IMG/VR virus record: IMGVR_UViG_3300028966_000062
Direction: 5' to 3' (one strand)
Length of the DNA: 64,000 nt
DNA from: a virus
The number at the start of each line of letters is the position of its first letter. Position 1 is the first letter of the stretch. The position numbers and the translations under genes were made by a program. The notes beneath the pieces were generated by a model that did no database searches, had not been told where the DNA came from, and saw nothing but the letters and a program-made list of their open reading frames with translations. This document shows, piece after piece, positions 12,690 to 37,880 of this stretch.

Positions 12690-12700
12690 GGTATATAAAA

Positions 12701-12838
12701 ATGACGATTCATATTTTACACGAATGTATCGACTCTAGCGATTTTTACGCAGAAGGTAATATTATTACCATTAACAAAGATAAAGAGAAGTTGTCTGAAA
12801 AGATGTTCTTGCTTTATAAGGACTGCCGGGATTCGTAA
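12701..12838 (+). CDS. small hypothetical protein (45 aa)
   Basis: ATG 12701; weak SD. Confidence 0.25.
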   Translation: MTIHILHECIDSSDFYAEGNIITINKDKEKLSEKMFLLYKDCRDS

Positions 12839-12958
12839 GGAAATAGTGTGAAACAGGACGAAACGTGGTGTGATTCATGTAAGGTGTCCGTTGTTAGTGG
12901 GAATTCTGGAAATTACTATCGACATCATTGGAAAATTGACAAGTTTGAGGTGTAAATT

Positions 12959-13183
12959 ATGATGGTATATGGAAACATAACGTGTAATCGCTGTGGCATT
13001 ACATGGTATGGTCCTAAATGTGGAAAGCTCTATTGTGATGAATGTCGTAAGATAATAAGAAATGAGGCATCCATTCGATGCAAGAATAAAAAGAAACATA
13101 AACCAACATTTGTTGAGATTGCAAGAATGGCAGATGCTAAAGGATTATCTTACGGTAAGTATTGCTTGAAGTATGGAATTTGA
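12959..13183 (+). CDS. zinc-ribbon protein (CxxC...CxxC)
   Basis: CNRCG...CGKLYCDEC motif. Confidence 0.45.
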   Translation: MMVYGNITCNRCGITWYGPKCGKLYCDECRKIIRNEASIRCKNKKKHKPTFVEIARMADAKGLSYGKYCLKYGI

Positions 13184-13193
13184 GGTGAATGTG

Positions 13194-14012
13194 ATGAGTG
13201 CAGTTGTTGAAAGAAAAGAAGAACAGATATCTAAATTGATTTATTTTAATCCGAAACCTTCTGTTCCGGCTAAAAAACGTGGTGTTACAAAAAGTAAGCA
13301 GAAGCGTAAGCGTAATATTTCTCCAATTAGAAGCTTGGATGATGTTCAAATGATTTCGGAATACTTCTGGGATAAAAAGCAATATCGCAATTGGTGTCTA
13401 TTTAACGTAGGTATCGCAACCGGGTTACGTGCTAGTGATTTACTCAAATTGAAAGTTTCCGATATGTCTTATTGCCTTTATAATGGAAAAATTGAAGTGG
13501 TTGAAGACGCTGGAGTGTGTATCGTTGAAGAAAAAACGTCCAAGTATCGAGAAATCATCCTTACTCCAGAAGCGAGGGATATTGTTGAAACATATATTAA
13601 GATTGCGAAACTTGGATATGACGATTGGATGTTTCCGTCTCGGCAGGGGAGCTGGAAAAAGTCGTTGAGGACAAATGGTGGAGATGGAAAAACTGGTATT
13701 CCTCATCTTGCAGAACCCAAAAAGGCCGGTGATCCTATTGATGTTGATTCTTTTGCTCGTATTCTTCGTAACGCTGGCAAAGATTTGGGTCTTAATTATA
13801 AGATTGCATCTCATTCTTGCCGTAAGACATTTGGTTATCGTGAGATGTGTCTTAATAAGGATGATAACCAGGCATTGTCTTGGATTCAGGGTCAGTTGAA
13901 TCATAGTAGTCAGGATATTACATTACGGTACGTTGGTTTTGATGAGGATAAGGCAAAAGAATATTATAAGAAGACTTTTTATGGTGTGAATACACACAGC
14001 TTGGAAGACTGA
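13194..14012 (+). CDS. tyrosine site-specific recombinase (phage integrase family)
   Basis: TGLRASDLL (box I Arg), HSCRKTFGY (HxxR), LNHSSQDITLRYV (His...Tyr) motifs; ATG 13194 after GAGGTG. Confidence 0.75.
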   Translation: MSAVVERKEEQISKLIYFNPKPSVPAKKRGVTKSKQKRKRNISPIRSLDDVQMISEYFWDKKQYRNWCLFNVGIATGLRASDLLKLKVSDMSYCLYNGKIEVVEDAGVCIVEEKTSKYREIILTPEARDIVETYIKIAKLGYDDWMFPSRQGSWKKSLRTNGGDGKTGIPHLAEPKKAGDPIDVDSFARILRNAGKDLGLNYKIASHSCRKTFGYREMCLNKDDNQALSWIQGQLNHSSQDITLRYVGFDEDKAKEYYKKTFYGVNTHSLED

Positions 14013-14020
14013 GGTGTGTT

Positions 14021-14704
14021 ATGGCTGATACTTATATTAAAATCTGGGATACTTACGAGAGCTACTTTGAACCCCTTAGTGCTGCCGAGGTGGGGCGTCT
14101 GGTACTGGCGATGATGAAATATAAATCGTCTGGAACGGAGCCTGAACTCAACGGAAATGAGCGGTATGTGTGGCCTGCCGTGAAGAGAGATTTGGATAAA
14201 GATGCCGAATACATCGAAGGTAAGAGGATTTCTGGTAAAGCTGGTGGCTCATCAAGCAAGCGTAAGCAAAGCGAAGCAAGCGCAAGCAAAACCAAGCTAG
14301 AAAAAGAAGAAGAGAAAGAAAAAGATAAGATATCGTCTTCGTCTTGTGATGAGACGACAACGACGAAATCTGTCGAGGATGTTTTTCGAGAGAATATTGG
14401 GAAGCTCAGTGCTACAGGAAAGAAGGCTTTGGCAGAATATGTTGAACGCATGGGTGATAAACTCGTACTTGCTGTAATTGGAAAGTGTTCTGATCTGGGC
14501 GGTAATACATGGGCTTATGTGCGAAAAGCACTGGACGAAGCTGAATCTCTTGGCTGCAAGACAGCTGATGATTACCGCCGGGTGTGTCCGATTGGTTGTG
14601 GTCGCAATACAAGAGTGGATAGACAAGCCCCTAGTGGAAACGATTGGTTAAAAAACGCAACGAAACGTCGTCCGTTGGTTAAAAGAGAATTGGAAACAGC
14701 ATAA
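14021..14704 (+). CDS. hypothetical protein with K/E/S-rich low-complexity linker; weak resemblance to phage replisome-organizer N-terminal domains
   Basis: YIKIWDTYESYFEPLSAAEVGRLVLAMM N-terminus; low-complexity middle. Confidence 0.5.
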   Translation: MADTYIKIWDTYESYFEPLSAAEVGRLVLAMMKYKSSGTEPELNGNERYVWPAVKRDLDKDAEYIEGKRISGKAGGSSSKRKQSEASASKTKLEKEEEKEKDKISSSSCDETTTTKSVEDVFRENIGKLSATGKKALAEYVERMGDKLVLAVIGKCSDLGGNTWAYVRKALDEAESLGCKTADDYRRVCPIGCGRNTRVDRQAPSGNDWLKNATKRRPLVKRELETA

Positions 14705-18903: not shown

Positions 18904-19230
18904 ATGCGTGAGAGAAAGGTTCTGAAGGTCATACGAGTTGATGACTTTTTAAAGTACATAAGAAAAAAGAGAGTGTGGGTTTGTTTTGTTTGCAATGGTG
19001 TAGATGTTCACATGGTCTGTAACAAAATGAACGATGTTGGAACAGAGACACATGGGATCGTTAAAGGCATTGGCTTCTTCGGAAACGAAAGTCATATTGA
19101 GCTGCGGCAAGAATGCCACGAAGCAAGGAGGATTGAGCTTAGACCGGGCGATAAAGAGAAAGCGTATGAGATGATATTCGATAACACAAGCGTGTTCGTA
19201 TCAGAGAATCCCGAGTTGTACGGGCACTAA
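18904..19230 (+). CDS. hypothetical Cys-rich protein (108 aa)
   Basis: ATG 18904 after GGAGGG; CFVCNG...HMVCNK. Confidence 0.5.
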   Translation: MRERKVLKVIRVDDFLKYIRKKRVWVCFVCNGVDVHMVCNKMNDVGTETHGIVKGIGFFGNESHIELRQECHEARRIELRPGDKEKAYEMIFDNTSVFVSENPELYGH

Positions 19231-19285: not shown

Positions 19286-19321
19286 TGGAACGGAGCTACA
19301 CTATTATAGAGGAGAAAAACT

Positions 19322-19741
19322 ATGGACAACAATATTGACCCAAAGGTCGGAGAGGTTTGGTTGGTCGATTTGTCCAATGCAACAGGTCATCAGCAGCGCG
19401 GTATTCGACCGTTCGTTGTGACAAGCAACAACAAGCGCAACTTCTTCAGTCCCACAATCAAAGGGAATCCGTTGTCTTCCAGAATATACAAGCGTTCTCC
19501 GGTTCATGTTCTACTCTCGAAAGAAGACTGCGATTTCCTAGAGGTTGATAGTATTGTTCTTTGTGAAGAGACTGATACACTTAACAAAGGACAGTTCATC
19601 AAAAAGCTTGGTGTCTTGTCTGAGCGTCATATGAATATGATCGCAATGGCAAGATGCAAGGATGAACCGTTTTTACTCGCAGCATTCCTGAGCGGCGTAC
19701 AACATACCATGGAATTTCAAAATTTTGCCGCATTTGCTTGA
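19322..19741 (+). CDS. MazF/PemK-family endoribonuclease toxin-like protein
   Basis: GEVWLVDLSNATGHQQRGIRPFVVTSN aligns with MazF GDLIWVDFDPTKGSEQAGHRPAVVLSP; later VLCEETDTLNKGQFIKKLG; no obvious antitoxin partner. Confidence 0.65.
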   Translation: MDNNIDPKVGEVWLVDLSNATGHQQRGIRPFVVTSNNKRNFFSPTIKGNPLSSRIYKRSPVHVLLSKEDCDFLEVDSIVLCEETDTLNKGQFIKKLGVLSERHMNMIAMARCKDEPFLLAAFLSGVQHTMEFQNFAAFA

Positions 19742-20807: not shown

Positions 20808-22874
20808 ATGTCTGATTTCAAGAAATTTCGTGCACTACTGCAGGATCACTTCAATGAGATGGTGAAGGATGGCGCACCTCTGTTTATCACCAATGCAGAT
20901 GAGGATAAGCTATATGACCTCTATCTGGACAGCTTCCCGGCTGGCACGAACTCCATCTTCCGTAAGCGGCGTAAGTATGATTGCTCCTACTGCCGTCGTT
21001 TCGTAAAGAACATTGGTAAGCTGGTTTCCTTTATGGATGGTCAGATGGTTACCGTCTGGGATTTCGATACCAAGTCCGACGTTTATCAGCCGGTTGTGGA
21101 TGCGCTGGCTACTTATGTGAAAACCTGTGCTGTTGTGAATCCGTATTATGTTAGCCGCAATATGATCTCCGATGGCAAGTTCGGCACGGAGGTAAACTAT
21201 GAGTACGATGCTGATCATAAGGCGGTTCACACCTGGGATCATTTCGCTGTCGAGATTCCTCAGCGGTTCATTGTCAATTCCTGCGATGTGACTACCAAGA
21301 TGGCCGAGTGGCGTGATTCTGCTAATGTGTTCAAGCGTTCTCTGGAGGAGCTGACCATGGATGCCGTGGACACCGTACTTGAGCTGATTGCGCAGAACAG
21401 CCTGTATCGCGGCAAGGAGTTTGAATCTCTGGTTCGTGGCTTCAAAATCGATAAGCGAGTGTATGATCGTCTGCCTGATGAAAAGAAGTCCGCTTATGTT
21501 TGGATGGCTCCCGGCGGTGCGTCGATGAACCGGCTTCGTATTCGTAACACCGCTATCGGCACCCTTCTTATCAATTTGAGCGAAGGCATGGATGTGGATT
21601 CCGCCGTTACCGCCTTTGAGAAGGTTGTCGCTCCTGCCAATTACAAGCGTCCCAAAGCTATTTTCACTAAGAAGATGCTGGAAGATGCACAGAAAACCGT
21701 TACTGAGTTGGGTTACATGAACAGTCTGGGTCGCCGATTTGCCACTCTGGATGATATTACTGCCAACAATATTCTGTTCTGCAACCGCGATGCCGCTCCT
21801 CGTGTAATGGGGGCAATGAACCCGTTCGAGGCAATGGCAAAATCTATGGGCACCGATCCTAAGAAGTTCGGTCGCGCGGAGGAAATCGGCATCGACAAGT
21901 TCATCAGAGACGTGCTGCCGACTGCAACGGGCCTAGAGCTGTTTATGGAGAATCGTTTCGAGAAGAATATGATGTCTCTGATTGCTCTGCAGGATAAGGC
22001 TGCGCCGTCTATGTTCAAGTGGCCTAATGGTTTCAGTTGGGCATATACCGGCAACATGACTGACAGCCAGATTCGGGAGAACGTCAAGAATGCTGGCGGC
22101 AAAGTCGATGGCGTGCTGCGTTTCTCTATTCAGTGGAACGATAAGCCGGGCGAGTGGGATGAAAATGATGAGGATGCTCATTGCATTGAACCCGATAAGA
22201 ATCACATCTATTTCGGCAGCAAGTGGCACCCTCGTACTGATGGCCGCCTGGACGTAGATATTATGCGTCCCATTCGCTATAAGGCCGCGGTCGAGAATAT
22301 CACCTGGCCTGACATCAAAAAGATGAAGGAAGGCGAGTACAGCTTCTATGTAAACTGCTTCGCTAGTCGCGGCGGCAAAACCGGTTTCCGTGCTGAAATC
22401 GAATTCGATGGCAACATCTACTCGTTTAACTACGATAAGCCGCTGCATGGTGGTCAGAATGTAGCTGTGGCAAAGGTCACTCTGAAGGATGGCAAATTCT
22501 CTATCAAGGAACTGCTTCCCAGTTCTACCAGCACCCGTGAAATTTGGGGTGTGAGTTCCAACCAGTTCGTACCTGTGTCTGTGGCGATGTACTCTCCGAA
22601 CTACTGGGACGAACAGACCGGCAATGGCAATCGTCACTACTTCTTCATGCTCAAGGATTGCGTCAACCCCGAAAAGCCGAACGGATTTTACAACGAATTC
22701 CTGAAGGCGGAATTGCTACAGCATAAGCGAGTATTTGAGGCGCTGGGTTCTCAGATGGCAGTTCAGTCGGTAAATGATCAGCTGTCCGGCGTTGGATTCT
22801 CTGAAACGAAGCAGGATTCCTTTATTGTTAAGGTGCAGGGAGCTACTGAGCGAATTTTGAAAGTGGTTATCTGA
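20808..22874 (+). CDS. large hypothetical protein (688 aa), GC-rich codon usage unlike neighbours
   Basis: long ORF, SD AATGGAGAA; ~50 percent GC with CTG/GGC/CGT codon preference; no domain recognised. Confidence 0.7.
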   Translation: MSDFKKFRALLQDHFNEMVKDGAPLFITNADEDKLYDLYLDSFPAGTNSIFRKRRKYDCSYCRRFVKNIGKLVSFMDGQMVTVWDFDTKSDVYQPVVDALATYVKTCAVVNPYYVSRNMISDGKFGTEVNYEYDADHKAVHTWDHFAVEIPQRFIVNSCDVTTKMAEWRDSANVFKRSLEELTMDAVDTVLELIAQNSLYRGKEFESLVRGFKIDKRVYDRLPDEKKSAYVWMAPGGASMNRLRIRNTAIGTLLINLSEGMDVDSAVTAFEKVVAPANYKRPKAIFTKKMLEDAQKTVTELGYMNSLGRRFATLDDITANNILFCNRDAAPRVMGAMNPFEAMAKSMGTDPKKFGRAEEIGIDKFIRDVLPTATGLELFMENRFEKNMMSLIALQDKAAPSMFKWPNGFSWAYTGNMTDSQIRENVKNAGGKVDGVLRFSIQWNDKPGEWDENDEDAHCIEPDKNHIYFGSKWHPRTDGRLDVDIMRPIRYKAAVENITWPDIKKMKEGEYSFYVNCFASRGGKTGFRAEIEFDGNIYSFNYDKPLHGGQNVAVAKVTLKDGKFSIKELLPSSTSTREIWGVSSNQFVPVSVAMYSPNYWDEQTGNGNRHYFFMLKDCVNPEKPNGFYNEFLKAELLQHKRVFEALGSQMAVQSVNDQLSGVGFSETKQDSFIVKVQGATERILKVVI

Positions 22875-22888
22875 AAGGAGAAATAATT

Positions 22889-23272
22889 ATGGAAAAGAAT
22901 CTGTTTGAAATTGCAACCCGTAATCGCTATCGCTTCAACTATAAGGGTGTTATGACTGTTGAAGATCTGTGGGCTCTGAGCGTCGAGGCACTGGATGCGA
23001 TTTTTAAGACTCTGAACCGTCAAAAGAAAACCGCAGATGAAGATTCTTTGCTGGCTGTTAAGAGCGCCGAAAATACAGAACTGGAAAATAAGATTGAGCT
23101 AGTCAAATACATCGTTTCTGTCAGGCTGGCCGAGTACGAGGCACGTGTGGACGCCGCAGAGAAGAAGGCGCAACGTGATAAGATTATGAAGATCGTTGCA
23201 AAGAAGAAGGACAAGGAACTTGAAGATATGGACGTTGACCAGCTAATGAAGAAGCTGGAAGAGTTGAATTAA
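22889..23272 (+). CDS. hypothetical K/E-rich coiled-coil protein (127 aa)
   Basis: SD AAAGGAGAAA. Confidence 0.55.
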   Translation: MEKNLFEIATRNRYRFNYKGVMTVEDLWALSVEALDAIFKTLNRQKKTADEDSLLAVKSAENTELENKIELVKYIVSVRLAEYEARVDAAEKKAQRDKIMKIVAKKKDKELEDMDVDQLMKKLEELN

Positions 23273-23289
23273 ATAGACATTTTATCGTG

Positions 23290-23316
23290 ATTTTCGTTAA
23301 AATAATTAACGAAAAT
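23290..23316. promoter_or_regulatory. 27-bp perfect palindrome ATTTTCGTTAA-AATAA-TTAACGAAAAT (operator or hairpin)
   Basis: exact 11-bp inverted arms upstream of RNA ligase gene. Confidence 0.4.
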
Positions 23317-23339: not shown

Positions 23340-24008
23340 TTGATGAAAACCTACGAAAAAATCGAAACGGTGTTTAATCGTGATATCGAAGGCACTAAAA
23401 AGCTGATTATCGGTGATTTTCGTAATGAAACCATTGAGTTCCTACAAAATAATGAGTGGGAATTTACTGAGAAAGTGGATGGCACGAATGTGCGTGTTTG
23501 CTGGGACGGTCATAAAGTCAGCTTTGCCGGACGAACTGAACGTGCAGAACTTCCAAAGAATCTGCTGAATGCACTAAATGAAATTTTCGGTACTTCTGAA
23601 GCAGAGGAATTGTTTGAACAGACTTACGGTGATAAAGAAGTAATCCTCTTTGGAGAGGGTTATGGTGGCAAAATTCAAGGATGTGGTCATGGATACCGAC
23701 CTGATGAGTGGTTCATCTTGTTCGATGTCCTGATTGGTGATAACTACCAGAGTAGAGAGTGGGTTGAAAAGACTGCTCAGATGTTTGGTATCCAAGTAGT
23801 TCCTATTTTGTTTACAGGGACGATTCGAGACGGTATCAAGTTTGTGTGTCAACATCCGAAGTCTACGGTTTCGATTGATGACATTTATATGGAAGGTCTG
23901 GTTGGTCGTCCAAAGGTTGAGTTGAAAGACCGCAGAGGTAATCGAGTAATTGTCAAAATCAAGTGGAATGACTTCAAGGATATCGCTGATACGCTTGGTA
24001 ATGAGTAA
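23340..24008 (+). CDS. RNA ligase-like nucleotidyltransferase (Rnl2-type NTase domain only)
   Basis: motif I EKVDGTN (KxDGxN), EGYGGK, IVKIKWNDF (KxK) in 222 aa. Confidence 0.55.
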   Translation: MMKTYEKIETVFNRDIEGTKKLIIGDFRNETIEFLQNNEWEFTEKVDGTNVRVCWDGHKVSFAGRTERAELPKNLLNALNEIFGTSEAEELFEQTYGDKEVILFGEGYGGKIQGCGHGYRPDEWFILFDVLIGDNYQSREWVEKTAQMFGIQVVPILFTGTIRDGIKFVCQHPKSTVSIDDIYMEGLVGRPKVELKDRRGNRVIVKIKWNDFKDIADTLGNE

Positions 24009-24076
24009 TTAAGACATTTTCTTCCTCCGAAAATGCCCTGAGCGGGGCTGACAGCCGGGAAAGACCGGCAATATAT

Positions 24077-24161
24077 GCCAAGGTGCTGCAAATGGGAGAC
24101 AGGGCGAGCCCAAACCTCGCTGTGGAAACACATGCGGTTTCGAATACCGTCCTTGGCACCA
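24077..24161 (+). tRNA. tRNA-Leu (anticodon CAA), class II long variable arm
   Basis: acceptor GCCAAGG/CCTTGGC, anticodon arm GCGAG-CCCAAAC-CTCGC, variable hairpin TGTG-GAAA-CACA, T-arm GCGGT-TTCGAAT-ACCGT, discriminator A + CCA; position 33 is C (unusual). Confidence 0.55.
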
Positions 24162-24200
24162 GAGTCCGAATATTCATTTATTAGATGTTGGAGGCATTTT

Positions 24201-25097
24201 ATGAAAAAGATTGATAAACTTACAAAAGAAGAAATTGAGCAAGCTTTTGAGGAAAGCAAAAGTTAGGCTGCGGTTGCGGAGAAGCTTGGATATTCAAAAA
24301 ATGGTGGAAGTACGAATCACGTACTTCAAGATTGTGCAAAAGCGCACAATATAAATACTTCTCATTTCACTGGGCAGGGCTAGAATAAAGGGAACGTGGA
24401 TTTGTCTCGTTTTAAAAATGGAAGACGAATAAAGGATTTAAAATCCGCACTTCTTTCTATCAAACCATATAAGTGTGAATGTTGTGGAAACTCTGAATAG
24501 ATGGGCAAACAGATTCCATTGCAAGTACATCATATTGACGGAAACCACATAAATAATGAGTTAGACAATCTTCAGTTGCTTTGCCCGAATTGTCATGCAC
24601 AAACTGATAATTGGTGCAAAAATAATATCGGGAAATACAAGACTGTGAGCGATAAAGATTTTCTTGATGCGTTAAAAACAACATCAACTATAAATGCCGC
24701 TCTTGAAAAAGTTGGAATTTATTATTCTGCGAGAGTGTGGTATGACAAAGCAAGGCAACTAATGATTGAAAACAACGTAACTCAAATTCCACGTGAAAAG
24801 GTTATCCGTGAGAAAAAAGAAAGAAAAAGAAGAAAAATCAAATATTGTTCAATATGCGGAAAAGAAATGAGTCCGCGTGCAAAAGGATGTCTCTGTAAAA
24901 ATTGTTTAAAAGGAAATCCTTACAGTAAACGCATTGATTTTCCTGATAAAGAACAATTGATGGTAGACACAGCTTCAATGTCCTTTCAAGATGTTGGAAG
25001 AAAATATGGAGTATCAGGAAATGCCATACGTAAATGGTGCAAGTATTATGATTTACCATACAGAAAATTAGATATGAACAGTAAAGAGGAAAATTAA
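24201..25097 (+). CDS. HNH homing endonuclease with N- and C-terminal HTH-like regions; single reading frame containing three in-frame TAG codons (24264, 24381, 24498)
   Basis: KCECCGNSE-TAG-MGKQIPLQVHHIDGNHINNELDNLQLLCPNCHAQT HNH signature; no frameshift between segments; TAGs sit where conserved Trp is expected. Confidence 0.7.
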
Positions 25098-25141
25098 CGT
25101 TGATAAAAAAGAAGCTGTAAAAAAATACAGCTTCTATATAT

Positions 25142-25229
25142 GCCGCAGTGATGGAGTGACATACATTTCCCGCTTAAACCGGGACGCCTGAAATATGGAT
25201 CGTGGGTTTGAATCCCACCTTCGGCACCA
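25142..25229 (+). tRNA. tRNA-Leu (anticodon TAA)
   Basis: acceptor GCCGCAG/CTTCGGC, anticodon arm TCCCG-CTTAAAC-CGGGA, long variable arm, T-arm GTGGG-TTTGAAT-CCCAC, ACCA end. Confidence 0.6.
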
Positions 25230-25232
25230 TAT

Positions 25233-25306
25233 CGAGAACGTGGTGTAATGGTAACACGCCTGCTTTGGGAGCAGGAGTTGCAGTTCAAATCTGACGTTTT
25301 CGACCA
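25233..25306 (+). tRNA. probable tRNA-Pro (anticodon TGG), noncanonical T-stem
   Basis: acceptor CGAGAAC/GTTTTCG + A + CCA; anticodon arm CCTGC-TTTGGGA-GCAGG; T-loop TTCAAAT but only 3 bp T-stem. Confidence 0.35.
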
Positions 25307-25411
25307 GTTGGTTTCCCAACATGCTTTTCATAAAATACCTTTCCTATTATTCTTGGCTCTCCAAAAATGGAGCAATAGGACACAGCAAGCCAAGTATATA
25401 ATGCGTCGTAG

Positions 25412-25485
25412 CCAAGCGGTTAAGGCAGGGTCCTTTGAAGTCCCGATTGCGAAAGTTCGATTCTTTCCGGCGCAATTTATATGCC
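25412..25485 (+). tRNA. tRNA-Gln (anticodon TTG)
   Basis: acceptor TGCGTCG/CGGCGCA, D-arm GCC-AAGCGGTTAA-GGC, anticodon loop CTTTGAA, T-arm GAAAG-TTCGATT-CTTTC. Confidence 0.55.
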
Positions 25486-25492
25486 ACAGTGG

Positions 25493-25567
25493 TGGAATTG
25501 ACCTACACATCTATTTTAGGGGTAGACGCCGAAAGGCTTGCGAGTTTGAGTCTCGCCTGTGGCACCA
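25493..25567 (+). tRNA. tRNA-Leu (anticodon TAG)
   Basis: acceptor GCCACAG/CTGTGGC + A + CCA; anticodon arm TCTAT-TTTAGGG-GTAGA; long variable arm; T-arm GCGAG-TTTGAGT-CTCGC. Confidence 0.6.
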
Positions 25568-25666
25568 CGGTCATAGAATGGTTGCGTACCGTTTGTTGAT
25601 CTCCTTTACTATTATTCCCAGCTCGCCAGTGATGGTGCAGTAGTGTTTTGTAAGCTGGGTTTTCAT

Positions 25667-25741
25667 GCGGCGGTCGTACAACGGCTAGTACATCAGCCTT
25701 CCAAGCTGAGGATGAGGTTTCGACTACCTTTCGCTGCTCCA
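25667..25741 (+). tRNA. tRNA-Gly (anticodon TCC)
   Basis: acceptor GCGGCGG/TCGCTGC, D-arm GTAC-AACGGCTA-GTAC, anticodon arm TCAGC-CTTCCAA-GCTGA, T-arm GAGGT-TTCGACT-ACCTT, T + CCA. Confidence 0.6.
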
Positions 25742-25930
25742 ATCTCGTATGGGTAGGATCTTTGGCGGTCAGATCTGGCCGCGCCTGTGCGAGATACCAC
25801 CCCGAAAGGGGCGAGATATAGGAAATGTGCATCGCTGTTATTCCTTCCTCGTCTATATGATATAGATGCAATAGTGTTTTATAAGGAAGGTGCCCAGTTG
25901 AATAGTTGCAGCTATTTAACTGGTTTTTAT

Positions 25931-26011
25931 GGGACATTATCTCAATTGGTTAGAGAACTCAGCTCATAACTGAGCATATGTATCACGGTTCAAGTCCGAC
26001 ATGTCCCACCA
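25931..26011 (+). tRNA. tRNA-Met (anticodon CAT; initiator/elongator/Ile2 not resolved)
   Basis: acceptor GGGACAT/ATGTCCC + A + CCA; D-arm TCTC-AATTGGTTA-GAGA; anticodon arm CTCAG-CTCATAA-CTGAG; T-loop TTCAAGT with weak T-stem. Confidence 0.55.
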
Positions 26012-26152: not shown

Positions 26153-27725
26153 GTGAAACATTATGGAAGTATTTGCGAGATTGATGGTTCTAAGATTGAA
26201 CCTGTCTCGTGTATCACTGGTGGTTCACCTTGTTAGCCAAGATCTTTCTATTGCCGGTAAGCGGGCAGGTTTGGCTGGAGAACGGTCTGGTCTATTTATG
26301 GAAATGATTCGTGTGATAAAAGAAATGAGGGATACCACCAATGGAGAATATCCAAAATTTGCAATCTGGGAAAATGTTAGAGGAGCACTCTCCTCAAACA
26401 ACGGAGAAGACTTCCGATGTGTCTTGGAAGAATTTGCACACATCGTCGAAGCAGACGCTACAATTCCTAAACCTTCGGAAAAAGGTGGAAAATGGTCTAA
26501 ATCCGGCGCAATTTCCGGTAATGGATGGTCTTTGGCATGGAGACTCTTCGATGCTCAATACTGGGGAGTGCCCCAACGTCGTCAAAGAATCGCGCTTGTC
26601 ATGGATTTTGGAGGACAACGTGCCGCAAAGATATTATTTGAGCGCACGGGCGTGCCAGGGAATTCTGACGAGAGCATCCCGACGTGGCAAGGTGCTGCCA
26701 GAATTGCTGAAAAATGCATTGTTGGAAATGATCGAGTGGTGGGAGAAAAAAGCTTTTGTATCGTCGGAAACATGATTGACAGAGAAACCAACATGAATGG
26801 GACTGGTGTAAAAGAAGATACTGCTTTCACTATAAACACTATTGACCGTAATGCTGTTGCCTACACTTTAAAGATTCGTTCAGGATGCGAAGGTGGTGGC
26901 AAAGGCGCACTGGTACAAATCGAGAAGAGCGCAACGCTTTCTACATTGCAAGATCAAACGTTAATTTGCTTGGCAGACAACACCTCTTTACATAATTCAA
27001 AACAAAAGATTTCGCCGGTGGTGTTTGAGAGTCACAGTCAGGATGCTCGATACACTCAACAGGGCGACACAAGTCCGGCTTGTACGGCTCAATGGGGGAC
27101 TGGTGGCAATAATATGCCGCTTGTTGCTGAAAAGAAAACCTTTGCAATGCAACGCATTGGTGAATACAAGGAAAGTGAACAGGCCAGCACAATGAAATCT
27201 CGTGATTATAAAGATGCAACTGATCTTGTAGTTGAAGAGAAAGAGGTGAAATGTGCTGGATTTCCACTTGGATTTAGAGCAGAAAATACGAAATGCTACG
27301 ATGAAGTGGCTACTACGCTTTGCAATGGTACGCGGCCTGGATTTACTACTGGATGTGTTCTCAATTGGATTGTTCGCCGCTTGACTCCTGTCGAGTGTGA
27401 ACGGTTACAGGGTTTTCCTGATGGATGGACCGATATTGGCGAGTGGGTTGACGAGAATGGTAAAAAGCACAAGCCAGCTGATTCTCCTCGGTACAAGGCA
27501 CTCGGTAATTCAATCGCTTTGCCTCAATGGTATTGGATTTTCCAGAAAATGAAGCCGTATATCGGTGAAAATCCTACGCTTGGCAGTCTTTTCGATGGGA
27601 TTGGTGGCTTTCCGCTTGTCTTTGAAAGTACGTATGGTGATGGTACTGCTATCTGGGGATCTGAAATCGAACCGTTCTGCGTTGCAGTAACTAAGAAGCA
27701 TTTTCCAGAAAAGCAAGGAGGATAA
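26153..27725 (+). pseudogene. DNA cytosine-C5 methyltransferase, motif order permuted (IV-VI-VIII-TRD-IX-X-I-II), disrupted at catalytic PCQ by 4-nt TAGC (26234-26237)
   Basis: frame 1 GTG 26153: KHYGSICEIDGSKIEPVSCITGGSPC then TAG; frame 2 continues QDLSIAGKRAG...ENVRG...QRRQR...RLQGFPDGW...LFDGIGGF; track ORF 26163 N-terminus is spurious. Confidence 0.7.
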
Positions 27726-29371: not shown

Positions 29372-30472
29372 ATGGCAGATAGAATTTTTAATCTTCCTCA
29401 GACCCGTGGTTCTTTTGAGATGGCTGGTAAGGTCACCGGCACCCAGCGTAGCAACTTCTATAACGAGAAGGAGACTAAGAATGGTGCTATGCGCCGTGTC
29501 CTGAGCTTTGGCGTTCAGACTTCCAATGAAAACACTTTTTATGTTGATCTTGCTGGTATGCCTCGTGATAAGGTTTACTTCTTCCGCCGTGCCGATAAGG
29601 ACAAGGGCATCGAGAAGGATAAGAAGGAAGTTGCTTGGAAGGATCGTCTGACTTATGTTGCACCGGAAGGCTATGATATGATTGGCGTTAAGGTCGGTGT
29701 TACCAAGAAGACGAATGAGTCTGGTAAGGTCGTCAATGATAACAAGACTCTGACTGACTTCGATGCAGCCAAGGAGATCTCTGATAACCTGCATGATGGT
29801 GACAATGTGTATGTCCGTGGTAACATCGAGTACAGCACTTACAACGGCAAGCACCAAATTCGCTTCGTTCCTACTCAGGTGTCTCTGAGCTCTAAGGAAA
29901 TCGACTTCGATGCAGAGGGTTTCGAGGAGCTGGCTCTGTTTACTCAGACCATTGTTTACACTGGTTGCCGCAAGAGTGATGAGGATGATGAAGTAGTTGT
30001 TGATGCAAAAATTGTGAACTACAACACCATTGAGGACGCAGAGCTTTTCATTGACTATAAGGCAAACACTCAGAATAAGGTTCTGGCTGATTCTATTCGT
30101 AAGCGTCTGAAGTCTTATACTAGCTTTGAGTGTTTTGGCCCCATTGTCAATCAGCAGAAGGTTGAGGAAGTTGAGACCGAGAATATCTGGGGTGGTCCTA
30201 ATAAGATGAAGCGCCAGAGCACTCCGGCAGTTCGTAAGCTGTATATTGAGGGCGTTAATCCTGATTCCTTTGATCCGAACCCTGGCGACAAGGATGCGGA
30301 ACCTACTTACACAGAGGACAATATCTCCGAGGCACGGGCAAAGATTGCTGCCAATACTCAGGCTAAGAAGGACTTCGACGGCAAGGCTGCTGAGAACGAC
30401 ACTTCTTGGTGGGGTGGTTCCAACAAGTCTACTGCAACTCCTGCAAATGAGGAAGAGGACGACTGGGGTTAA
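29372..30472 (+). CDS. putative ssDNA-binding-like protein with acidic C-terminal tail (EEEDDWG), GC-rich codon usage
   Basis: position next to Sak4-like gene, acidic tail; function is inference only. Confidence 0.55.
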   Translation: MADRIFNLPQTRGSFEMAGKVTGTQRSNFYNEKETKNGAMRRVLSFGVQTSNENTFYVDLAGMPRDKVYFFRRADKDKGIEKDKKEVAWKDRLTYVAPEGYDMIGVKVGVTKKTNESGKVVNDNKTLTDFDAAKEISDNLHDGDNVYVRGNIEYSTYNGKHQIRFVPTQVSLSSKEIDFDAEGFEELALFTQTIVYTGCRKSDEDDEVVVDAKIVNYNTIEDAELFIDYKANTQNKVLADSIRKRLKSYTSFECFGPIVNQQKVEEVETENIWGGPNKMKRQSTPAVRKLYIEGVNPDSFDPNPGDKDAEPTYTEDNISEARAKIAANTQAKKDFDGKAAENDTSWWGGSNKSTATPANEEEDDWG

Positions 30473-30485
30473 TTTATTTTAGCAT

Positions 30486-30506
30486 TAGCTATGCAATACA
30501 GGATAC
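30486..30506 (+). repeat. 21-nt conserved motif copy F4 (TAGCTATGCAATACAGGATAC)
   Basis: upstream of SD TAAGGAG of gene 30522. Confidence 0.7.
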
Positions 30507-30521
30507 ATAAGGAGTTTAGTT

Positions 30522-30815
30522 ATGCAGAATACTCTTGAGTATACCGCTTATAATGGTATGAAATTTTACATTGTCTACATCGAAGCGCTTGAAAAGGAAC
30601 CTGAAGAAGACTCTCCGATGATGTCTATTGTGTTTACTACGCATCCTGAGATTATTGCAGAAGCTAAAGCCGACGCGGAATGCAATGGTGGTGCTGTTCC
30701 GGTAGGGTGTAAAGACCTTCTGGTTGATAGTGTGGATAACATCACCCGTCAGTTGGATTATGTTGCTCATGCAGTTGAAACGGGTGATCCGTGGTATGAG
30801 TGTTTGAAAGTTTAA
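30522..30815 (+). CDS. hypothetical protein (97 aa)
   Basis: ORF after motif F4. Confidence 0.5.
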   Translation: MQNTLEYTAYNGMKFYIVYIEALEKEPEEDSPMMSIVFTTHPEIIAEAKADAECNGGAVPVGCKDLLVDSVDNITRQLDYVAHAVETGDPWYECLKV

Positions 30816-30843
30816 TAAAAGATTTAGAGAGGAATTTACATAT

Positions 30844-31992
30844 ATGGCTATGATTCGTAAGGCATCTGCTGTTCGTAAGAAGCTTCATATGCTGATTTAT
30901 GGTGAACAGGGAACTGGTAAGTCTCGTACTGCTATGCAGCTGTGCTATTTGAAGAATGCAGACGGTAAGCCGTTCCGTGTTCTGTATTTGGATACCGAAA
31001 ATGGTTCTATTGATAATTACACCGAGGAGCTGGAAGCCAATGGTGTGAATCCTGATAATCTGTTGATTGTTTACACCCAGTCTCTGGCAGAAGTTCAGGA
31101 TTATATCAAGATGGTTACCAACGATGAGGATATCGAGGATGAGAATGGAGATGTTTATCTGGATGCAGACAGTAAGCCGTTCCGTGCAGACGCTCTGGTT
31201 GTTGACTCCGCTTCCATCCTCAAGATGACTGCTACCCAGGGCCTCACCGCCTTCTCGCAGAAGCGTGCCAAGGTTAAGGCCGCATCTCAGGGTCTGACTG
31301 GTGATGAAAAGGCAGTTAAGATTGAGGGTGCTGGCATGGAGCTCAAGGATTTCAATACCCTGAACTTCAAGGGTCAGTCTCTGATTTTGGATCTGAATGC
31401 ATCTGGTGTAAACTACATCGTTGTTTGCCGAGAGAAGGACGAGAAGCATACTAAGGTTGTGAATGGTTCTATCGTAAGTGAGCCTACTGGTCGTAAGATT
31501 CCTGATGGGTTTGCTGGTCAGGAGTACAACGTTGATACTGAGTTCCGCCTGTATTTTCAGGATGGTCAGCAGCTCGCTTTCTTCGATAAGGATCGTACCG
31601 GTATGCATAAGGGCGGTGAGGTCGTTGAGGATCTGACCCTGCTTGAGTATCAGGATATTATCTCTAGTAGCGCAAAGAATCGGGAGAACGTCATCAAGAA
31701 CGGCTTAAACGATGCTGTTAAGACTGAGGTTAAGCTGAGTATGCGTGACCTTGGTATCGAAAACGATGAGCCGGATGATGTTCCGGCAGATAAGAGTTCT
31801 GATAGTAAAGAGCCTTCTATGGATGACATCAAGGCAAAGCTGAACGACCTGATTGCTTCCGCTTCTCCTGTGAAGAAGAGCGCAGCACAGAAGGCTGTTA
31901 AGGCGGCTGGCCTGTCTACCGCGTTCCGTTCTATGACTGATATTGAGGAACTGAAGAAGGTCGCCGCAATCATGGAGAAGGAACTGGCTTAA
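30844..31992 (+). CDS. Sak4-like RecA-fold ATPase (ssDNA annealing/recombination helper)
   Basis: Walker A YGEQGTGKS near N-terminus, Walker B-like LVVDSAS; long low-complexity C-terminus. Confidence 0.55.
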   Translation: MAMIRKASAVRKKLHMLIYGEQGTGKSRTAMQLCYLKNADGKPFRVLYLDTENGSIDNYTEELEANGVNPDNLLIVYTQSLAEVQDYIKMVTNDEDIEDENGDVYLDADSKPFRADALVVDSASILKMTATQGLTAFSQKRAKVKAASQGLTGDEKAVKIEGAGMELKDFNTLNFKGQSLILDLNASGVNYIVVCREKDEKHTKVVNGSIVSEPTGRKIPDGFAGQEYNVDTEFRLYFQDGQQLAFFDKDRTGMHKGGEVVEDLTLLEYQDIISSSAKNRENVIKNGLNDAVKTEVKLSMRDLGIENDEPDDVPADKSSDSKEPSMDDIKAKLNDLIASASPVKKSAAQKAVKAAGLSTAFRSMTDIEELKKVAAIMEKELA

Positions 31993-32684
31993 TGGAACTA
32001 ACCCGTAAATGCAAGATTTGCGGGAAGAACATTTTCATCGAGCGAGACCGTAGCACATTTTTCTACGACAAGACTGGTTTTTATCATAAGGATTGTTTTG
32101 TAGAAAAAAAGAAAAATCAAAAACGCCCTTGGACAGATGACCTGCTAAGGGCATTTTTTGACAAAGTGAATGACACTACGGATAAAAAGGTCGATGATCT
32201 TCTTTCCAAAAAGAGAGAACAAGACCACAATCGTGAGCTTGCACATATCAAACAGGAAGAGAAAAAGATTCTTTTCGACCATATTCGAGATATATACGCC
32301 CCGGCGGTTGTTCCTGGTAGCTTCTACTCGAAACTTGCGCAGTTAATTTCCGGTAATTATTACAAATACAGAGGTTCTATTCCTCCGCTAGAACTTTACG
32401 ATATGTGGGTTCTAGCGAAACCCCGACTAGATAAGATAGTTGCCGAGAAAGAAGCAAAGGGTTGTGATATGAGTCAGCGATGGAATTACGACTTGGCTGT
32501 TTTATTGGCTCAATATCCTAGTTATCTCGATCGAAAAGAAAGACTAGCTTCGATTCGCAGTGAAAGCGAAGAAAAAATGAAGGAAAATCTGACTGAAACG
32601 GTACTGAAACGTATGAAAACAGCACCGAAACAGAGTAAAAACGAGAATGAAATTGATATAAGTGCAATTCTCGATGAGATATAA
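31992..32684 (+). CDS. hypothetical protein with N-terminal zinc ribbon (230 aa)
   Basis: CKICGKN...HKDCF. Confidence 0.5.
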   Translation: MELTRKCKICGKNIFIERDRSTFFYDKTGFYHKDCFVEKKKNQKRPWTDDLLRAFFDKVNDTTDKKVDDLLSKKREQDHNRELAHIKQEEKKILFDHIRDIYAPAVVPGSFYSKLAQLISGNYYKYRGSIPPLELYDMWVLAKPRLDKIVAEKEAKGCDMSQRWNYDLAVLLAQYPSYLDRKERLASIRSESEEKMKENLTETVLKRMKTAPKQSKNENEIDISAILDEI

Positions 32685-32701
32685 AAGAGGGAGGTGGATG
32701 A

Positions 32702-34225
32702 GTGGAACTCATTTCAAATATCCCGAATGAAATTCTATTTGTTGGCGCAATTTACAAGCATCCTGACTATTTGGTCGAGTATGGGCATTATGTCAAGAGC
32801 AAGTACGATTTTGCCGATGAAGCAACAAAATTTTTCTACGATGCAGCGTTAATTATTTATGAAACTCGGACTCAAGAATTTAATAAAACGTCTGTTTTAA
32901 CGTTTATGGCTGAAGACGAGTCCAGACTATCCCAATACAAGCGGCTGAAGGGCTGGTCAACCATCGAATACTACATGAGCCTTGCGAATGACGATGATAT
33001 CAAGGGATATTTCAATATCCTAAAGAAATATTCGTTGCTTCGTGAGTATCAGAGAAACGGATTTAACATCGAAGGAATCTTGAAGCATCGGCAATTTGAA
33101 ATGTTTGGCGCTCAGGACATTTACAAATTGATTCGTGGCAAGGCCGACAAGATCAATACTGTCATCATCACAAACGACGATGCTGAGATTTTGAATAACG
33201 GTCTGTTGCCGATGGTCAATGAACGTCTGAGCGTTCCTGATATGGGCTTGCCGTTCCAGTACCCAATCATGAATGATTTGTTCCGAGGATTGAAGCTGGG
33301 TACTGTGATGTTCAATGGTATGCCATCTAACGCTGGCAAGACTAGATACATGATGGCGATTGTTGCTTACGTCACATTGGTTCAAAAGCAGAAAGCTCTT
33401 CTGCTGCTGAATGAGATGGATCTTGAATCCGTCCGGTATTGCTTGCTAGTCACTGCCATCAATAATCCTGAGTTTCAAGAGTTGCATGGTCATCGCTTTC
33501 ACAAGGATGAACGAGAAATCACCCTTGGAATGTACCGAGATGCAAATGGAAACTTCATCTTCCGAAAGCAAAACGAAGACGGGGAATACATAGAAAGCAT
33601 TGATGAATTCACAGCTCGCGTCTATGAGGAAAGCGAAGAGTATCGCAATGTGCTTGATGTTTGCCAGTGGATTGAGAGCGAATCACAAGGCTTGATTATC
33701 GCAAAAGATGTTTCTGCTGATTATAGTGACAAGTCCCTACGATTTGAAATCCAGAAGGCAGCTCTCACTCAGGGAGTTAAGTATGTGTTCTACGATACTC
33801 TAAAGAACGACATCGCTTCGATTGGTGAATGGGCAGCGTTCAAGGTCACGGCCACAGAGCTTGAAGAGATTGCGAAAAACCTGAAGATCTTTATCTATGG
33901 CAGTATTCAGTTGGCTGAAAATGCTCATGAGTATCTTCCTGATGAGCTGAATTCAAACAACATTGCTGAGTCAAAAATGATTAAGCATGTTGCTTGGACG
34001 ATGGTTCTATTCAAGGAAATTCCGAAAGATAAATTCGCAAAGTATCAATACATCTTTCATGACCCTGAATGGGGCGGCGACTGTGCTCATCGGTTAAATC
34101 CAGACAAACGGTACTATGTTGGAAACATTGACAAGAACCGTTTTGGCGAGAAGAAGAAAATCATGTTTGAAGTGAATTTGAACCAGAATGTCTGGAAAGA
34201 GGTCGGTGTCTGCACCAGAAAGTAA
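32702..34225 (+). CDS. DnaB-like replicative helicase
   Basis: N-terminal DnaB-like helical domain; C-terminal Walker A FNGMPSNAGKTRYMM. Confidence 0.55.
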   Translation: MELISNIPNEILFVGAIYKHPDYLVEYGHYVKSKYDFADEATKFFYDAALIIYETRTQEFNKTSVLTFMAEDESRLSQYKRLKGWSTIEYYMSLANDDDIKGYFNILKKYSLLREYQRNGFNIEGILKHRQFEMFGAQDIYKLIRGKADKINTVIITNDDAEILNNGLLPMVNERLSVPDMGLPFQYPIMNDLFRGLKLGTVMFNGMPSNAGKTRYMMAIVAYVTLVQKQKALLLLNEMDLESVRYCLLVTAINNPEFQELHGHRFHKDEREITLGMYRDANGNFIFRKQNEDGEYIESIDEFTARVYEESEEYRNVLDVCQWIESESQGLIIAKDVSADYSDKSLRFEIQKAALTQGVKYVFYDTLKNDIASIGEWAAFKVTATELEEIAKNLKIFIYGSIQLAENAHEYLPDELNSNNIAESKMIKHVAWTMVLFKEIPKDKFAKYQYIFHDPEWGGDCAHRLNPDKRYYVGNIDKNRFGEKKKIMFEVNLNQNVWKEVGVCTRK

Positions 34226-34234
34226 GGAACTACA

Positions 34235-35257
34235 ATGGTAAATATCGCAGATCTGAAAAATTATATTCTTGAAGAACAGCAGATTGAACCAATTTTGGAG
34301 GAGCTTGGTTGTCATCATATTAGTCATAAAGCTGGATATTATCAGTGTGCGAATCCAGATGGTGACAATAGGACGGCACTCTGTATCTACGAGAATGAAA
34401 ATCTTACTGCGGTAGATTACACACGAGACATTGTCAATGGAAAGACCAGTTATGATTTGATTTCTGTCGTCCAGTTCTTTCTGGAACTGTCTTTCCCAAA
34501 AGCTATTAAGCAAATCTGCGAATGGGTTGGACTTGACTACTATCACAACTTCGAGGAAGACCTTCCTAAAAGTATGTTGATTCTAAAAGAACTCATCACC
34601 ATGCAAAATGAAGGTGAAGAACACGAGGATGACCGTCCGATAGTCCCCATCTCCGAAGCCATCCTCGGTTATTACAAACCTTATGTTAACCAGATTTTTG
34701 CTGACGATGGGATATCTTACGAGACACAACGGGAGTTTGAGATTGGTTTTGATGAACTAACAAATAGAATCACGATTCCAATCAGAGATGAAATTGGTAC
34801 TTTGGTTGGTGTAAAGGGAAGATATTTTGGTAAGCCGCCTGAAGGTGAATTAAAGTATCTATATCTTGAGCCGTGTGCCAGAAACCGTATTCTGTATGGC
34901 CTGTATAAGACAGAGCCGTACATTAAGAATGAAGGTCTGGTATATGTTGGTGAAGCTGAAAAGTCTGTCATGCAGATGTGGAACATGGATGTCTACAACT
35001 GTGTGGCGACTGGCGGTAAGAAGGTTTCACAGAATCAAATTGAAATTTTAACACGTCTTTGCGTTGATATTTGTTTTGTATTTGATAAAGACGTTCAGCT
35101 TAGTGAGCTTATGGTTCTCGCTAATCGATTTGTCGATGGCGTAAGTGTGTATGCTGTAGTAGATGATAAAGGGATTCTGGATGAAAAGGAAGCCCCGACT
35201 GATAATCCTGAAAAATTTAAGGCATTGATTGAAAACTGTGTTAGGAGAATTAAATGA
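34235..35257 (+). CDS. DnaG-like primase (zinc-binding + Toprim)
   Basis: CHHISHKAGYYQCANPDGDN...ALCIY zinc-finger; Toprim core YVGEAEKSVM...ATGG. Confidence 0.55.
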   Translation: MVNIADLKNYILEEQQIEPILEELGCHHISHKAGYYQCANPDGDNRTALCIYENENLTAVDYTRDIVNGKTSYDLISVVQFFLELSFPKAIKQICEWVGLDYYHNFEEDLPKSMLILKELITMQNEGEEHEDDRPIVPISEAILGYYKPYVNQIFADDGISYETQREFEIGFDELTNRITIPIRDEIGTLVGVKGRYFGKPPEGELKYLYLEPCARNRILYGLYKTEPYIKNEGLVYVGEAEKSVMQMWNMDVYNCVATGGKKVSQNQIEILTRLCVDICFVFDKDVQLSELMVLANRFVDGVSVYAVVDDKGILDEKEAPTDNPEKFKALIENCVRRIK

Positions 35258-36978: not shown

Positions 36979-36979
36979 T

Positions 36980-37619: not shown

Positions 37620-37622
37620 AAA

Positions 37623-37871: not shown

Positions 37872-37880
37872 GGTGAGTAT

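Follow-up and report, generated by a model that had tools for sequence, protein, structure and literature searches.

The ligase gene and its tRNA array

We analysed a stretch of 64,000 nucleotides (nt; the window) from the IMG/VR record IMGVR_UViG_3300028966_000062, which is part of a large gut-phage genome, and concentrated on positions 23340-26011, where a gene for a predicted RNA ligase stands in front of seven tRNA genes and a gene for an HNH endonuclease. All genes of the window lie on the plus strand, and the GC content is 41%. The closest public relatives were IMG/VR contigs of 70-148 kb and one unannotated human-faecal record named 'Bacteriophage sp.', and the full genome was estimated at about 110-140 kb, of which the part beyond the window was only partly seen. 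The ligase gene (23340..24008, plus strand) begins at TTG 23340 or at the adjoining ATG 23343. tRNA-Leu(CAA) starts 68 nt past its stop codon, followed by the HNH gene and then by six more tRNAs up to position 26011, and this order, which a sequence-only reading of the window had proposed, held at every coordinate. A sigma-70-like promoter match (TAGACA-18-TAAAAT, 23274..23303, plus strand; consensus scan only) lies upstream of the ligase gene, and no terminator-like site was found between the ligase stop and tRNA-Leu(CAA). The ligase is probably co-transcribed with the tRNA array, or at least with its first tRNA.

Profile searches assigned the 222-amino-acid (aa) product to PF09414 (RNA_ligase; E = 3.9e-16, 60.1 bits with a cut-off of 27, profile positions 2-171 of 171) and to PHROG 548 'RNA ligase' (E = 2.7e-23). 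The protein contains EKVDGTN, and the motifs of a nucleotidyltransferase (NTase) were found at K45-V-D-G-T-N (motif I), R65-T66 (Ia), F-G-E106 (III), F128-D129 (IIIa), E185-G (IV) and K206-I-K208 (V), with the C-terminus (residue 222) only 14 residues past motif V. In an alignment of 29 homologues, K45, D47, G48, N50, R65, T66, E106, F128, D129, E185, G186, K206 and K208 were invariant. The AlphaFold2 model reached a pLDDT of 86 and a pTM of 0.83, and its top Foldseek matches were 2HVR, 1S68 and 2HVQ, all of the T4 Rnl2 NTase domain (E 5e-10 to 2e-9). Naegleria Rnl5, trypanosome REL1, Rnl1, archaeal Rnl3 and fungal Trl1 came next, and DNA ligases appeared only from rank 32; the Rnl1 structures ranked below Rnl2 and Rnl5, and their alignment was confined to the NTase core. 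The viral structural neighbours bear the name RNA ligase 2.

The sequence-only reading had described this product as a 222-aa Rnl2-type nucleotidyltransferase with KVDGTN. An RNA-ligase NTase with an intact lysine context was indeed found, and with whole motifs and only RNA ligases among the top structures there was no sign of a DNA ligase or capping-enzyme fragment. The likeness to Rnl2 is restricted to the catalytic domain, and the Rnl2 equivalog TIGR02307 was missed (30.8 bits, cut-off 197.15), the match ending at profile position 224 of 326. The DRB0094 model TIGR02306 was also missed (21.4 bits, cut-off 151), with only profile positions 149-336 aligned. Neither the C-terminal helical domain of Rnl2 nor the N-terminal OB-like domain of Rnl5 is present in the 222 residues. 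An exhaustive profile search (E <= 1e-30) returned 1,144 clusters at 50% identity, nearly all of 205-225 aa, and the short form is the norm of this family and not a truncation. Full-length homologues annotated 'RNA ligase' occur in Streptomyces BE-cluster phages, crAss-like phages (cr116_1, IAS virus) and Lak megaphages. Three long homologues (P0130, P0157, P0143) carry LAGLIDADG inteins exactly at the motif I lysine, and because the inteins target this residue, the active site appears to be conserved, selected and functional. Apart from inteins and one DUF7574, the long homologues had no additional domain, and in particular no fused kinase or phosphatase. For DNA the phage has another ATP-dependent ligase, encoded at 45808-47139 and equipped with an OB domain, so the 23340 product is not its DNA ligase. 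We therefore classify it, as far as sequence and modelled fold can tell, as a minimal stand-alone ATP-dependent RNA ligase of the Rnl2/Rnl5 superfamily that consists of the NTase domain only. It is a new and biochemically uncharacterised member of the known phage RNA ligases that are kept beside phage tRNAs.

ARAGORN detected exactly seven tRNAs in the window, all on the plus strand: tRNA-Leu(CAA) (24077-24161, type II), tRNA-Leu(TAA) (25142-25229), tRNA-Pro(TGG) (25233-25306), tRNA-Gln(TTG) (25402-25475), tRNA-Leu(TAG) (25483-25567), tRNA-Gly(TCC) (25667-25741) and a tRNA of Met/Ile2 type with anticodon CAT (25931-26011; 81 nt, with a 12-nt variable region). All are contiguous genes with an encoded CCA. 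The Rfam model RF00005 recovered six of them at 41-54 bits and missed tRNA-Leu(CAA). We regard tRNA-Leu(CAA) as a genuine tRNA on comparative grounds, because compensatory changes affect 19 of the 21 cloverleaf pairs across relatives, and its CAA anticodon and CCA end are invariant. Its anticodon loop reads C-C-CAA-A-C, with C33 at the place of the near-universal U33, which would fit the reported anticodon-loop changes by which phage tRNAs evade nucleases. The same array was found in seven related loci (L001-L007; loci of relatives are numbered with an L throughout). An Rfam search (E <= 10) gave no HDV-like or theta ribozyme flanking the tRNAs, either in this array or in the second array described below. 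Two variations were seen among the relatives. The tRNA-Met(CAT) slot holds tRNA-Ile(TAT) in L003, L004 and L007. The place of the normal 74-nt tRNA-Gln of the window is taken in L001 (8039-8128) and L007 (6993-7082) by a 90-nt tRNA with the Gln anticodon UUG, a long variable arm (type II) and A73 as in tRNA-Leu, which may be a mis-decoding or decoy tRNA.

Neighbouring genes, end-healing candidates and contexts in relatives

The ligase gene lies in an early accessory region, outside the replication module (29372-47139). Just upstream are two conserved genes (20808..23272, plus strand) for a 688-aa protein (PHROG 1735; DUF8224 in precomputed Pfam) and a 127-aa helical protein (PHROG 2018). By tblastn co-occurrence they accompany the ligase in L001-L021 and L030, and neither protein had a PDB-sequence, PADLOC or Pfam match in our scans. 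The PADLOC defence models gave no significant match to the ligase and its neighbours either. The three further genes that the sequence-only reading had named were all supported by profile matches: the MazF-like RNase at 19322, 4 kb upstream of the ligase (PemK_toxin, E 3.8e-19), the HAD protein at 36980 (NCBIfam BT0820-family HAD phosphatase, E 2.8e-23; PDB 2OBB family) and the calcineurin-like phosphoesterase at 37881 (Pfam Metallophos, E 5e-12). The latter two genes stand 13 kb away from the ligase and are flanked by RecJ-like and DnaE-like genes.

Then, we looked for enzymes that could heal RNA ends before ligation. The Pfam scan covered, concatenated into pseudo-proteins, the window open reading frames (ORFs) of at least 90 aa other than the DnaE-like (38984-42328) and helicase-like (42341-45634) ones, and the PHROG scan covered a subset, the unassigned ORFs. 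Serglycin matches in the Pfam scan were artefacts of the GS linkers joining the ORFs and were discarded. Within this scope no kinase, Pnkp, Hen1, RtcB, 2H phosphoesterase, CCA-adding enzyme or RlaP was found. The sequence-only reading had likewise seen no polynucleotide kinase P-loop domain, and the profile searches that it had recommended for a Pnkp, Hen1 or kinase domain among the unassigned window ORFs turned up no end-healing enzyme. A role of the HAD and calcineurin-like proteins as healing partners was not borne out. The HAD protein is of BT0820 type, shows no sequence similarity to the phosphatase of T4 Pnkp and, like the phosphoesterase, is encoded within the replication module. The metallophosphoesterase had no relative among solved structures by sequence and no link to known phosphatases. 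Regarding the bacterial Pnkp/Hen1 system, no Hen1, kinase or fusion was found in the window scan or in the long homologues, and the metallophosphoesterase is a separate gene. In our reading, the HAD, metallophosphoesterase and MazF genes are not part of the proposed ligase-tRNA module.

The relatives gave a similar result within the ligase loci that we fetched, which extend about 6 kb on each side of the ligase. Neither a HAD nor a metallophosphoesterase gene was near the ligase in these loci. Healing enzymes were also missing beside the ligase in ten divergent loci, with one hint in L031, where an HD phosphohydrolase gene is directly upstream and a Cys-phosphatase-like ORF downstream. Apart from this hint, no kinase, phosphatase or CCA-adding enzyme was linked to the ligase in the relatives examined.

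Proximity to tRNAs was counted in 43 viral loci, and 18 of them had tRNAs within 6 kb of the ligase. The distance was shortest in lineage A (ligase 94-99% identical), where the array begins 83-89 nt downstream, and was 0.35-0.5 kb in lineage D (58-60%), 0.8-3.5 kb in lineage C (66-68%), 1.4-1.7 kb in lineage F (35-41%) and 4.5 kb in L042. In Streptomyces phage Annadreamy, 4.9 kb separate the ligase from the end of a 33-tRNA array. A random gene would be expected at most 2 kb from an array in about 10-15% of genomes, and the ligase is so placed in 3-4 of about 9 lineages, a rough comparison that is not phylogenetically controlled. The association is therefore recurrent but partial.

Other neighbours differ between lineages. 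In group B, and at about 8659-14213 of the tRNA-less relatives L044-L047, the ligase is followed by genes for a phosphoribosyltransferase, NAMPT, a Macro protein, NAD synthase and nicotinamidase, and is preceded by an AAA/nSTAND3 ATPase gene; in L044-L047 a reverse transcriptase and a ThiF-like protein are encoded before the latter. Judged from gene content, this cluster looks like an NAD-reconstitution counter-defence set. The ligase of cr116_1 is between DNA polymerase I and the HicA mRNase, and that of the 42-kb phage ctKR88 follows PD-(D/E)XK, AAA, RusA and YopX genes and has a CopG-like gene nearby. In L024 the neighbours are a resolvase-like nuclease, a Cas4-like PD-(D/E)XK nuclease, AAA_24 and an SSB-like protein. 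SSB, primase-helicase and PD-(D/E)XK genes are upstream and DnaE downstream in L029, and Erf and SSB genes are the neighbours in L041.

The amber-containing HNH gene and the reading of UAG

The second protein gene of the region (24201..25097, plus strand) encodes a homologue of the HNH homing or nicking endonuclease HegA (F-TflIV) of phage T5, recognised by PF01844 and several HNH PHROGs. It had appeared as a 198-aa ORF starting at 24501, which we replaced by a frame of 298 codons from ATG 24201 containing three in-frame TAG codons (24264-24266, 24381-24383, 24498-24500). A pseudogene was ruled out, since the same TAGs are kept in otherwise intact paralogues of about 50% identity in L001 and L005. 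At two of the three sites, all homologues using the standard code have an invariant Trp (GQGW, EWxG). The HNH gene is present in the window, L001, L003 and L004, absent from L002, and located in another tRNA spacer in L005. Because its presence and position vary and it is homologous to HegA, it is predicted to be an independent, selfish homing-type element in the tRNA array. The sequence-only reading had counted it within an RNA repair island, and this assignment has to be dropped.

Stop codon usage in the 90 window genes was TAA 50, TGA 39 and TAG 1. The sole TAG-ending gene (60664-60993) has its TAG at 60892, after which the frame stays open for 33 further codons to a TAA, and this TAG may also be read through. 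A genome walk to the opposite arm gave access to the structural module of 80 orthologous contigs, those of L002-L006 among them. At position 65 of the terminase large subunit (PHROG 2), TAG was found in 33 loci and TGG in 65, and seven further sites in long ORFs showed the TAG/TGG pattern, with one more site being aromatic (Y/W/F). TAG against CAG was seen at only three rare sites, in 1-2 loci each. In-frame TAG sites in the terminase and structural-module (late) genes of relatives include L135 11434 and L145 14459, and their use is sparse, with 0-3 per approximately 2,600 late-gene codons. This final tally was limited to long, annotated structural ORFs. Broad tallies of the residues aligned to in-frame TAG were discarded, because synonymous Leu changes look like TAG/Gln pairs when read in an antisense frame, and spurious sites came from alternative-frame ORFs lying over real genes and tRNAs.

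ARAGORN found no tRNA with a CTA anticodon in the window. On the opposite arm of the genome, about 45 kb from the window array, a second tRNA array holds a tRNA with the anticodon CUA in a variable slot, as in L300 (11767-11841, minus strand) and L058 (18957-19032, plus strand), and the same slot is occupied by tRNA-Trp(CCA) in sister phages. Among 214 distinct tRNAs, this suppressor was closest to the phage tRNA-Trp, with the same acceptor stem and G73 and an anticodon loop changed from CUCCAAA to CUCUAAA. A gapped pattern search found the suppressor family in at least 115 IMG/VR viral contigs, and 20 distinct suppressor sequences carry compensatory stem changes. The near-twin of the window, contig 094716, also has the suppressor; ARAGORN missed it there, presumably because its T-loop appears atypical.

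Because TAG replaces TGG in late genes and the suppressors derive from tRNA-Trp, amber is probably read as Trp rather than as Gln in this phage group. We consider it rather likely that the window belongs to a widespread group of human-gut phages of about 110-145 kb which read UAG as Trp by CUA suppressors evolved from their own tRNA-Trp. The HNH gene would be the witness of this code within the window, all three of its in-frame TAGs being conserved and two of them coinciding with an invariant Trp, and it is probably the most interesting item of 23340-26011. The E. coli amber suppressor derived from tRNA-Trp is largely charged with Gln, so the residue inserted at TAG needs direct proof. To our knowledge, UAG as Trp has so far been assigned only to Balanophoraceae plastids (code 32), and phages have been hinted at by tRNA isotype prediction alone. 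Borges et al. observed only TAG to Gln in phages, and Kienbeck et al. predicted that 19.4% of their 180 phage suppressor tRNAs are of Trp isotype and cited the 'rarely reported code 32'. The idea of amber as Trp in phages is therefore not wholly new, while the codon-level support appears to be.

Several other features were seen around the suppressor and elsewhere in the genome. L058 (18640-18747) and about 34 related loci contain a tRNA-like gene whose acceptor, D and T arms are canonical, but which has an insert of about 35 nt forming two hairpins in place of the anticodon loop and encodes no CCA. It is conserved at 98-100% identity and is absent from the closest relatives of the window; its product may be a tRNA with an intron or a regulatory RNA of tRNA-like form. 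In L058 the suppressor is closely followed by two tandem matches to the Rfam 'abiF RNA' (19172-19208 and 19293-19329), which stay below threshold (33.8 and 23.9 bits, gathering cut-off 37), and some relatives have a ToxN-family toxin gene upstream of the equivalent of the window start (L053 7318-7800, L054 6775-7257); together they may represent phage-borne mimicry of a type III toxin-antitoxin system. Some 8-10 kb before the window begins, a divergent arm opens with a PF05183 protein of more than 900 aa (L052 1-1815, minus strand), a eukaryotic-type RNA-dependent RNA polymerase/two-barrel polymerase that is probably the phage's own single-subunit RNA polymerase, and the two genome arms are separated by a gene-free stretch of 2-2.7 kb. 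Nucleotide-metabolism genes flank another free-standing homing endonuclease gene at 58595-59608, whose product is GIY-YIG/SegE-like and has NUMOD3 motifs, so the genome seems rich in selfish elements. The RecD-like helicase (42341-45634, 1,097 aa) has its P-loop divided as GYGGC...(about 330 aa)...VTGNTGKST and appears to carry a putative intein. The C5 cytosine methyltransferase gene after the tRNA array (26153-27725) has its PCQ motif (GGSPC / QDLSIAGKR) split over two frames by 4 bases (TAGC), identically in L007, and its motif I (FDGIGG) at the C-terminus. It looks disrupted or unusual, which suggests a circular permutation or a frameshift-dependent gene.

Proposed function of the ligase and comparison with known systems

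From the family, motifs, fold, architecture and genomic associations given above we infer a substrate, an end chemistry and a biological role. Our tentative proposal is that the ligase is a stand-alone sealer of RNA breaks with 3'-hydroxyl and 5'-phosphate (3'-OH/5'-P) ends. Ligases of such type require these ends to be kept together by secondary structure, and the ends are the product of metal-dependent nucleases. Since no healing enzymes were detected, the ligase could act only on ends that need no healing, and because no kinase or phosphatase is linked to its gene, direct resealing of nicks made by host nucleases would be the most likely job. tRNA is the leading candidate substrate because the adjacency of ligase and tRNAs recurs. 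Lys45 would be adenylylated by ATP, the AMP would be passed from Lys45 to the 5'-phosphate end of the RNA, and the adjacent 3'-OH would attack and reseal the break. The targets would be nicks in structured RNA made by metal-dependent host nucleases, such as TOPRIM- or PIN-type tRNases and similar enzymes, and the ligase and tRNA array would form a 'replace and reseal' module of tRNA maintenance. A bolder extension of the UAG-as-Trp reading, which we consider less likely, is that the minimal ligase beside the tRNA array belongs to a toolkit keeping these phage tRNAs functional.

The proposal agrees with published work. RNA ligases that accompany sets of phage tRNAs are well established as a counter-defence theme (PMC7824862). 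The TOPRIM tRNase OLD of phage P2 leaves 5'-P/3'-OH ends, and a tRNA with a single nick is rejoined by T4 Rnl1 or Rnl2 with no healing step (PMC12445682). The 140-fold enrichment of an RNA-ligase ORF in gut phages whose tRNAs are flanked by ribozymes (PMC10879173) also counts in favour. The counter-defence or toxin-related neighbours of the ligase also count for it, namely the NAD salvage genes of group B, HicA in cr116_1, the CopG-like gene in ctKR88 and MazF in the window. Several points weigh against it. No tRNA was found within 6 kb of the ligase in 15 group-B loci, 7 group-E loci, L038, L041 and L043, and none was nearby in cr116_1 and ctKR88. About half of the lineages are of this kind, so to that extent the ligase is independent of adjacent tRNAs, and the proximity in the others may merely mean that ligase and tRNAs share the same variable early region. 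In L024, L029, cr116_1 and ctKR88 the ligase adjoins replication or recombination genes. The isolated NTase domain of Rnl2 can adenylylate itself and seal nicks that are already adenylylated, but its 5'-adenylylation step is defective. By analogy, a ligase without the accessory domain may need a partner, act differently or have compensating features.

The main rival is a role in DNA transactions during phage replication, recombination or repair, in which the ligase would act on nicks with ribonucleotides at the end of the 3'-OH strand (RNA-primed ends, ribo-patches, RNA:DNA hybrids) and the adjacency to tRNAs would be coincidental. Nick sealers of the Rnl2/DraRnl type are known to prefer such nicks, and the ligase sits within replication or recombination modules in L041 in addition to the four contexts just named; the lineages lacking nearby tRNAs also fit. 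However, the phage already has its own complete ATP-dependent DNA ligase, OB domain included, the window gene stands beside tRNAs and outside the replication module, the nearest structural relatives are all RNA ligases, and other lineages have counter-defence neighbours, so we hold this role to be rather unlikely. It is quite improbable that the ligase serves the maturation or upkeep of the phage's own tRNAs, including the amber suppressors, as part of a translation-reprogramming toolkit and not as a response to nucleases. An RNA-ligase ORF is enriched 140-fold in gut phages with ribozyme-flanked tRNAs (PMC10879173), homologues occur in the amber-recoded Lak phages, the present group is itself amber-recoded with CUA suppressors, and related contigs hold the tRNA-like gene with an insert at the anticodon position. 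But neither tRNA array has an HDV-like or theta ribozyme, the window tRNAs are contiguous with encoded CCA, the insert-bearing gene is absent from the closest relatives, and homologues also occur in ctKR88, which has no nearby tRNA, and in Streptomyces BE phages, with no sign of recoding seen although none was specifically sought.

A T4-like heal-and-seal pathway, in which the HAD protein and/or the phosphoesterase would remove 2',3'-cyclic or 3'-phosphates, a kinase yet to be identified would act on the 5'-OH and the ligase would seal, is very doubtful. The ligase, HAD and metallophosphoesterase classes are all encoded in the window, the healing phosphatase of bacterial Pnkp/Hen1 is a metallophosphoesterase and that of T4 Pnkp a HAD domain (PMC7824862), and L031 provides a hint with the two ORFs flanking its ligase. 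Against this stand the scans that found no kinase, Pnkp or Hen1, the BT0820/2OBB family of the HAD protein, which has no match to T4 Pnkp, the 13 kb separating both genes from the ligase and their absence from the fetched loci, and, L031 aside, the lack of any fused or adjacent healing enzyme across lineages. Of the proposal of T4-type tRNA repair built from different parts in the sequence-only reading, healing partners are not supported, while the pairing of ligase and tRNAs, which recurs in divergent lineages, and the counter-defence theme remain. That the ligase is what is left of a longer RNA ligase after decay or loss of catalysis is hardly credible. It lacks the accessory domain found in every biochemically characterised RNA ligase family and scores far under the Rnl2 and DRB0094 equivalog cut-offs, but its catalytic motifs are all invariant, the short form is kept in more than 1,000 sequence clusters, inteins target motif I, and the fold model is confident.

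If direct sealing by the ligase is correct, these common phage ligases of about 215 aa would be the smallest natural RNA ligases and would demonstrate that in vivo the nucleotidyltransferase core can seal RNA by itself. Phage RNA repair would then have a branch without kinases, matched to host nucleases producing 5'-P/3'-OH ends, among them the TOPRIM and PIN tRNases that are now turning up in many defence systems, and a compact ligase could serve biotechnology. If amber is read as Trp, gut phages of this group would be mistranslated under both code 11 and code 15, and with the suppressor derived from tRNA-Trp phages would have a second way of reassigning amber, independent of the first, which bears on annotation and on the evolution of the genetic code.

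Compared with known enzymes, the ligase is closest in structure to T4 Rnl2 (gp24.1; 1S68, 2HVQ, 2HVR), which is also phage-encoded and gave the best Foldseek match (E 5e-10, TMq 0.64). K35, R55, E99, F119/D120, E204 and K225/K227 of Rnl2 all have equivalents in the ligase. However, identity is only about 21%, the C-terminal helical domain of about 90 aa is lacking, and the N-terminal beta-hairpin segment is distinct. The Rnl5/DRB0094 group (NgrRnl of Naegleria gruberi, 5COT; Deinococcus DraRnl) was the second-best structural group (E about 1e-7); the ligase lacks its N-terminal OB-like domain and weakly matches the adenylyltransferase half of TIGR02306. DRB0094 is also the family name of the RNA-ligase ORF enriched in gut phages with ribozyme-flanked tRNAs (PMC10879173). 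With T4 Pnkp and Rnl1 and with the tRNA and RNA-ligase sets of jumbo phages (Iyer et al. 2021, PMC7824862), the window shares an ATP-dependent RNA ligase beside phage tRNAs in a region of conflict genes, and the presumed logic of counter-defence. It differs from the T4 pair in that no kinase, Pnkp-type HAD, 2H phosphoesterase, RtcB or RlaP was detected by our scans, and from Rnl1 itself in that the ligase is without the tRNA-specific C-terminal domain.

The HNH protein shares 40.8% identity with T5 HegA over 94% of the N-terminal 147 residues (E 1e-18), and T5 hegA is also flanked by tRNA genes, but the gene described here has three in-frame ambers to be read through and a longer C-terminal extension with zinc-ribbon and helix-turn-helix features. 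As in the amber-recoded gut phages of code 15 (TAG as Gln), TAG is shunned as a stop, occurs in frame in late and selfish genes and is accompanied by CUA suppressors. In contrast to them, TAG here aligns with TGG and not with CAG/CAA, and the suppressor comes from tRNA-Trp and not from tRNA-Gln. In the predicted meaning of the codon, the group would instead resemble the Balanophoraceae plastids, where TAG is Trp (code 32).

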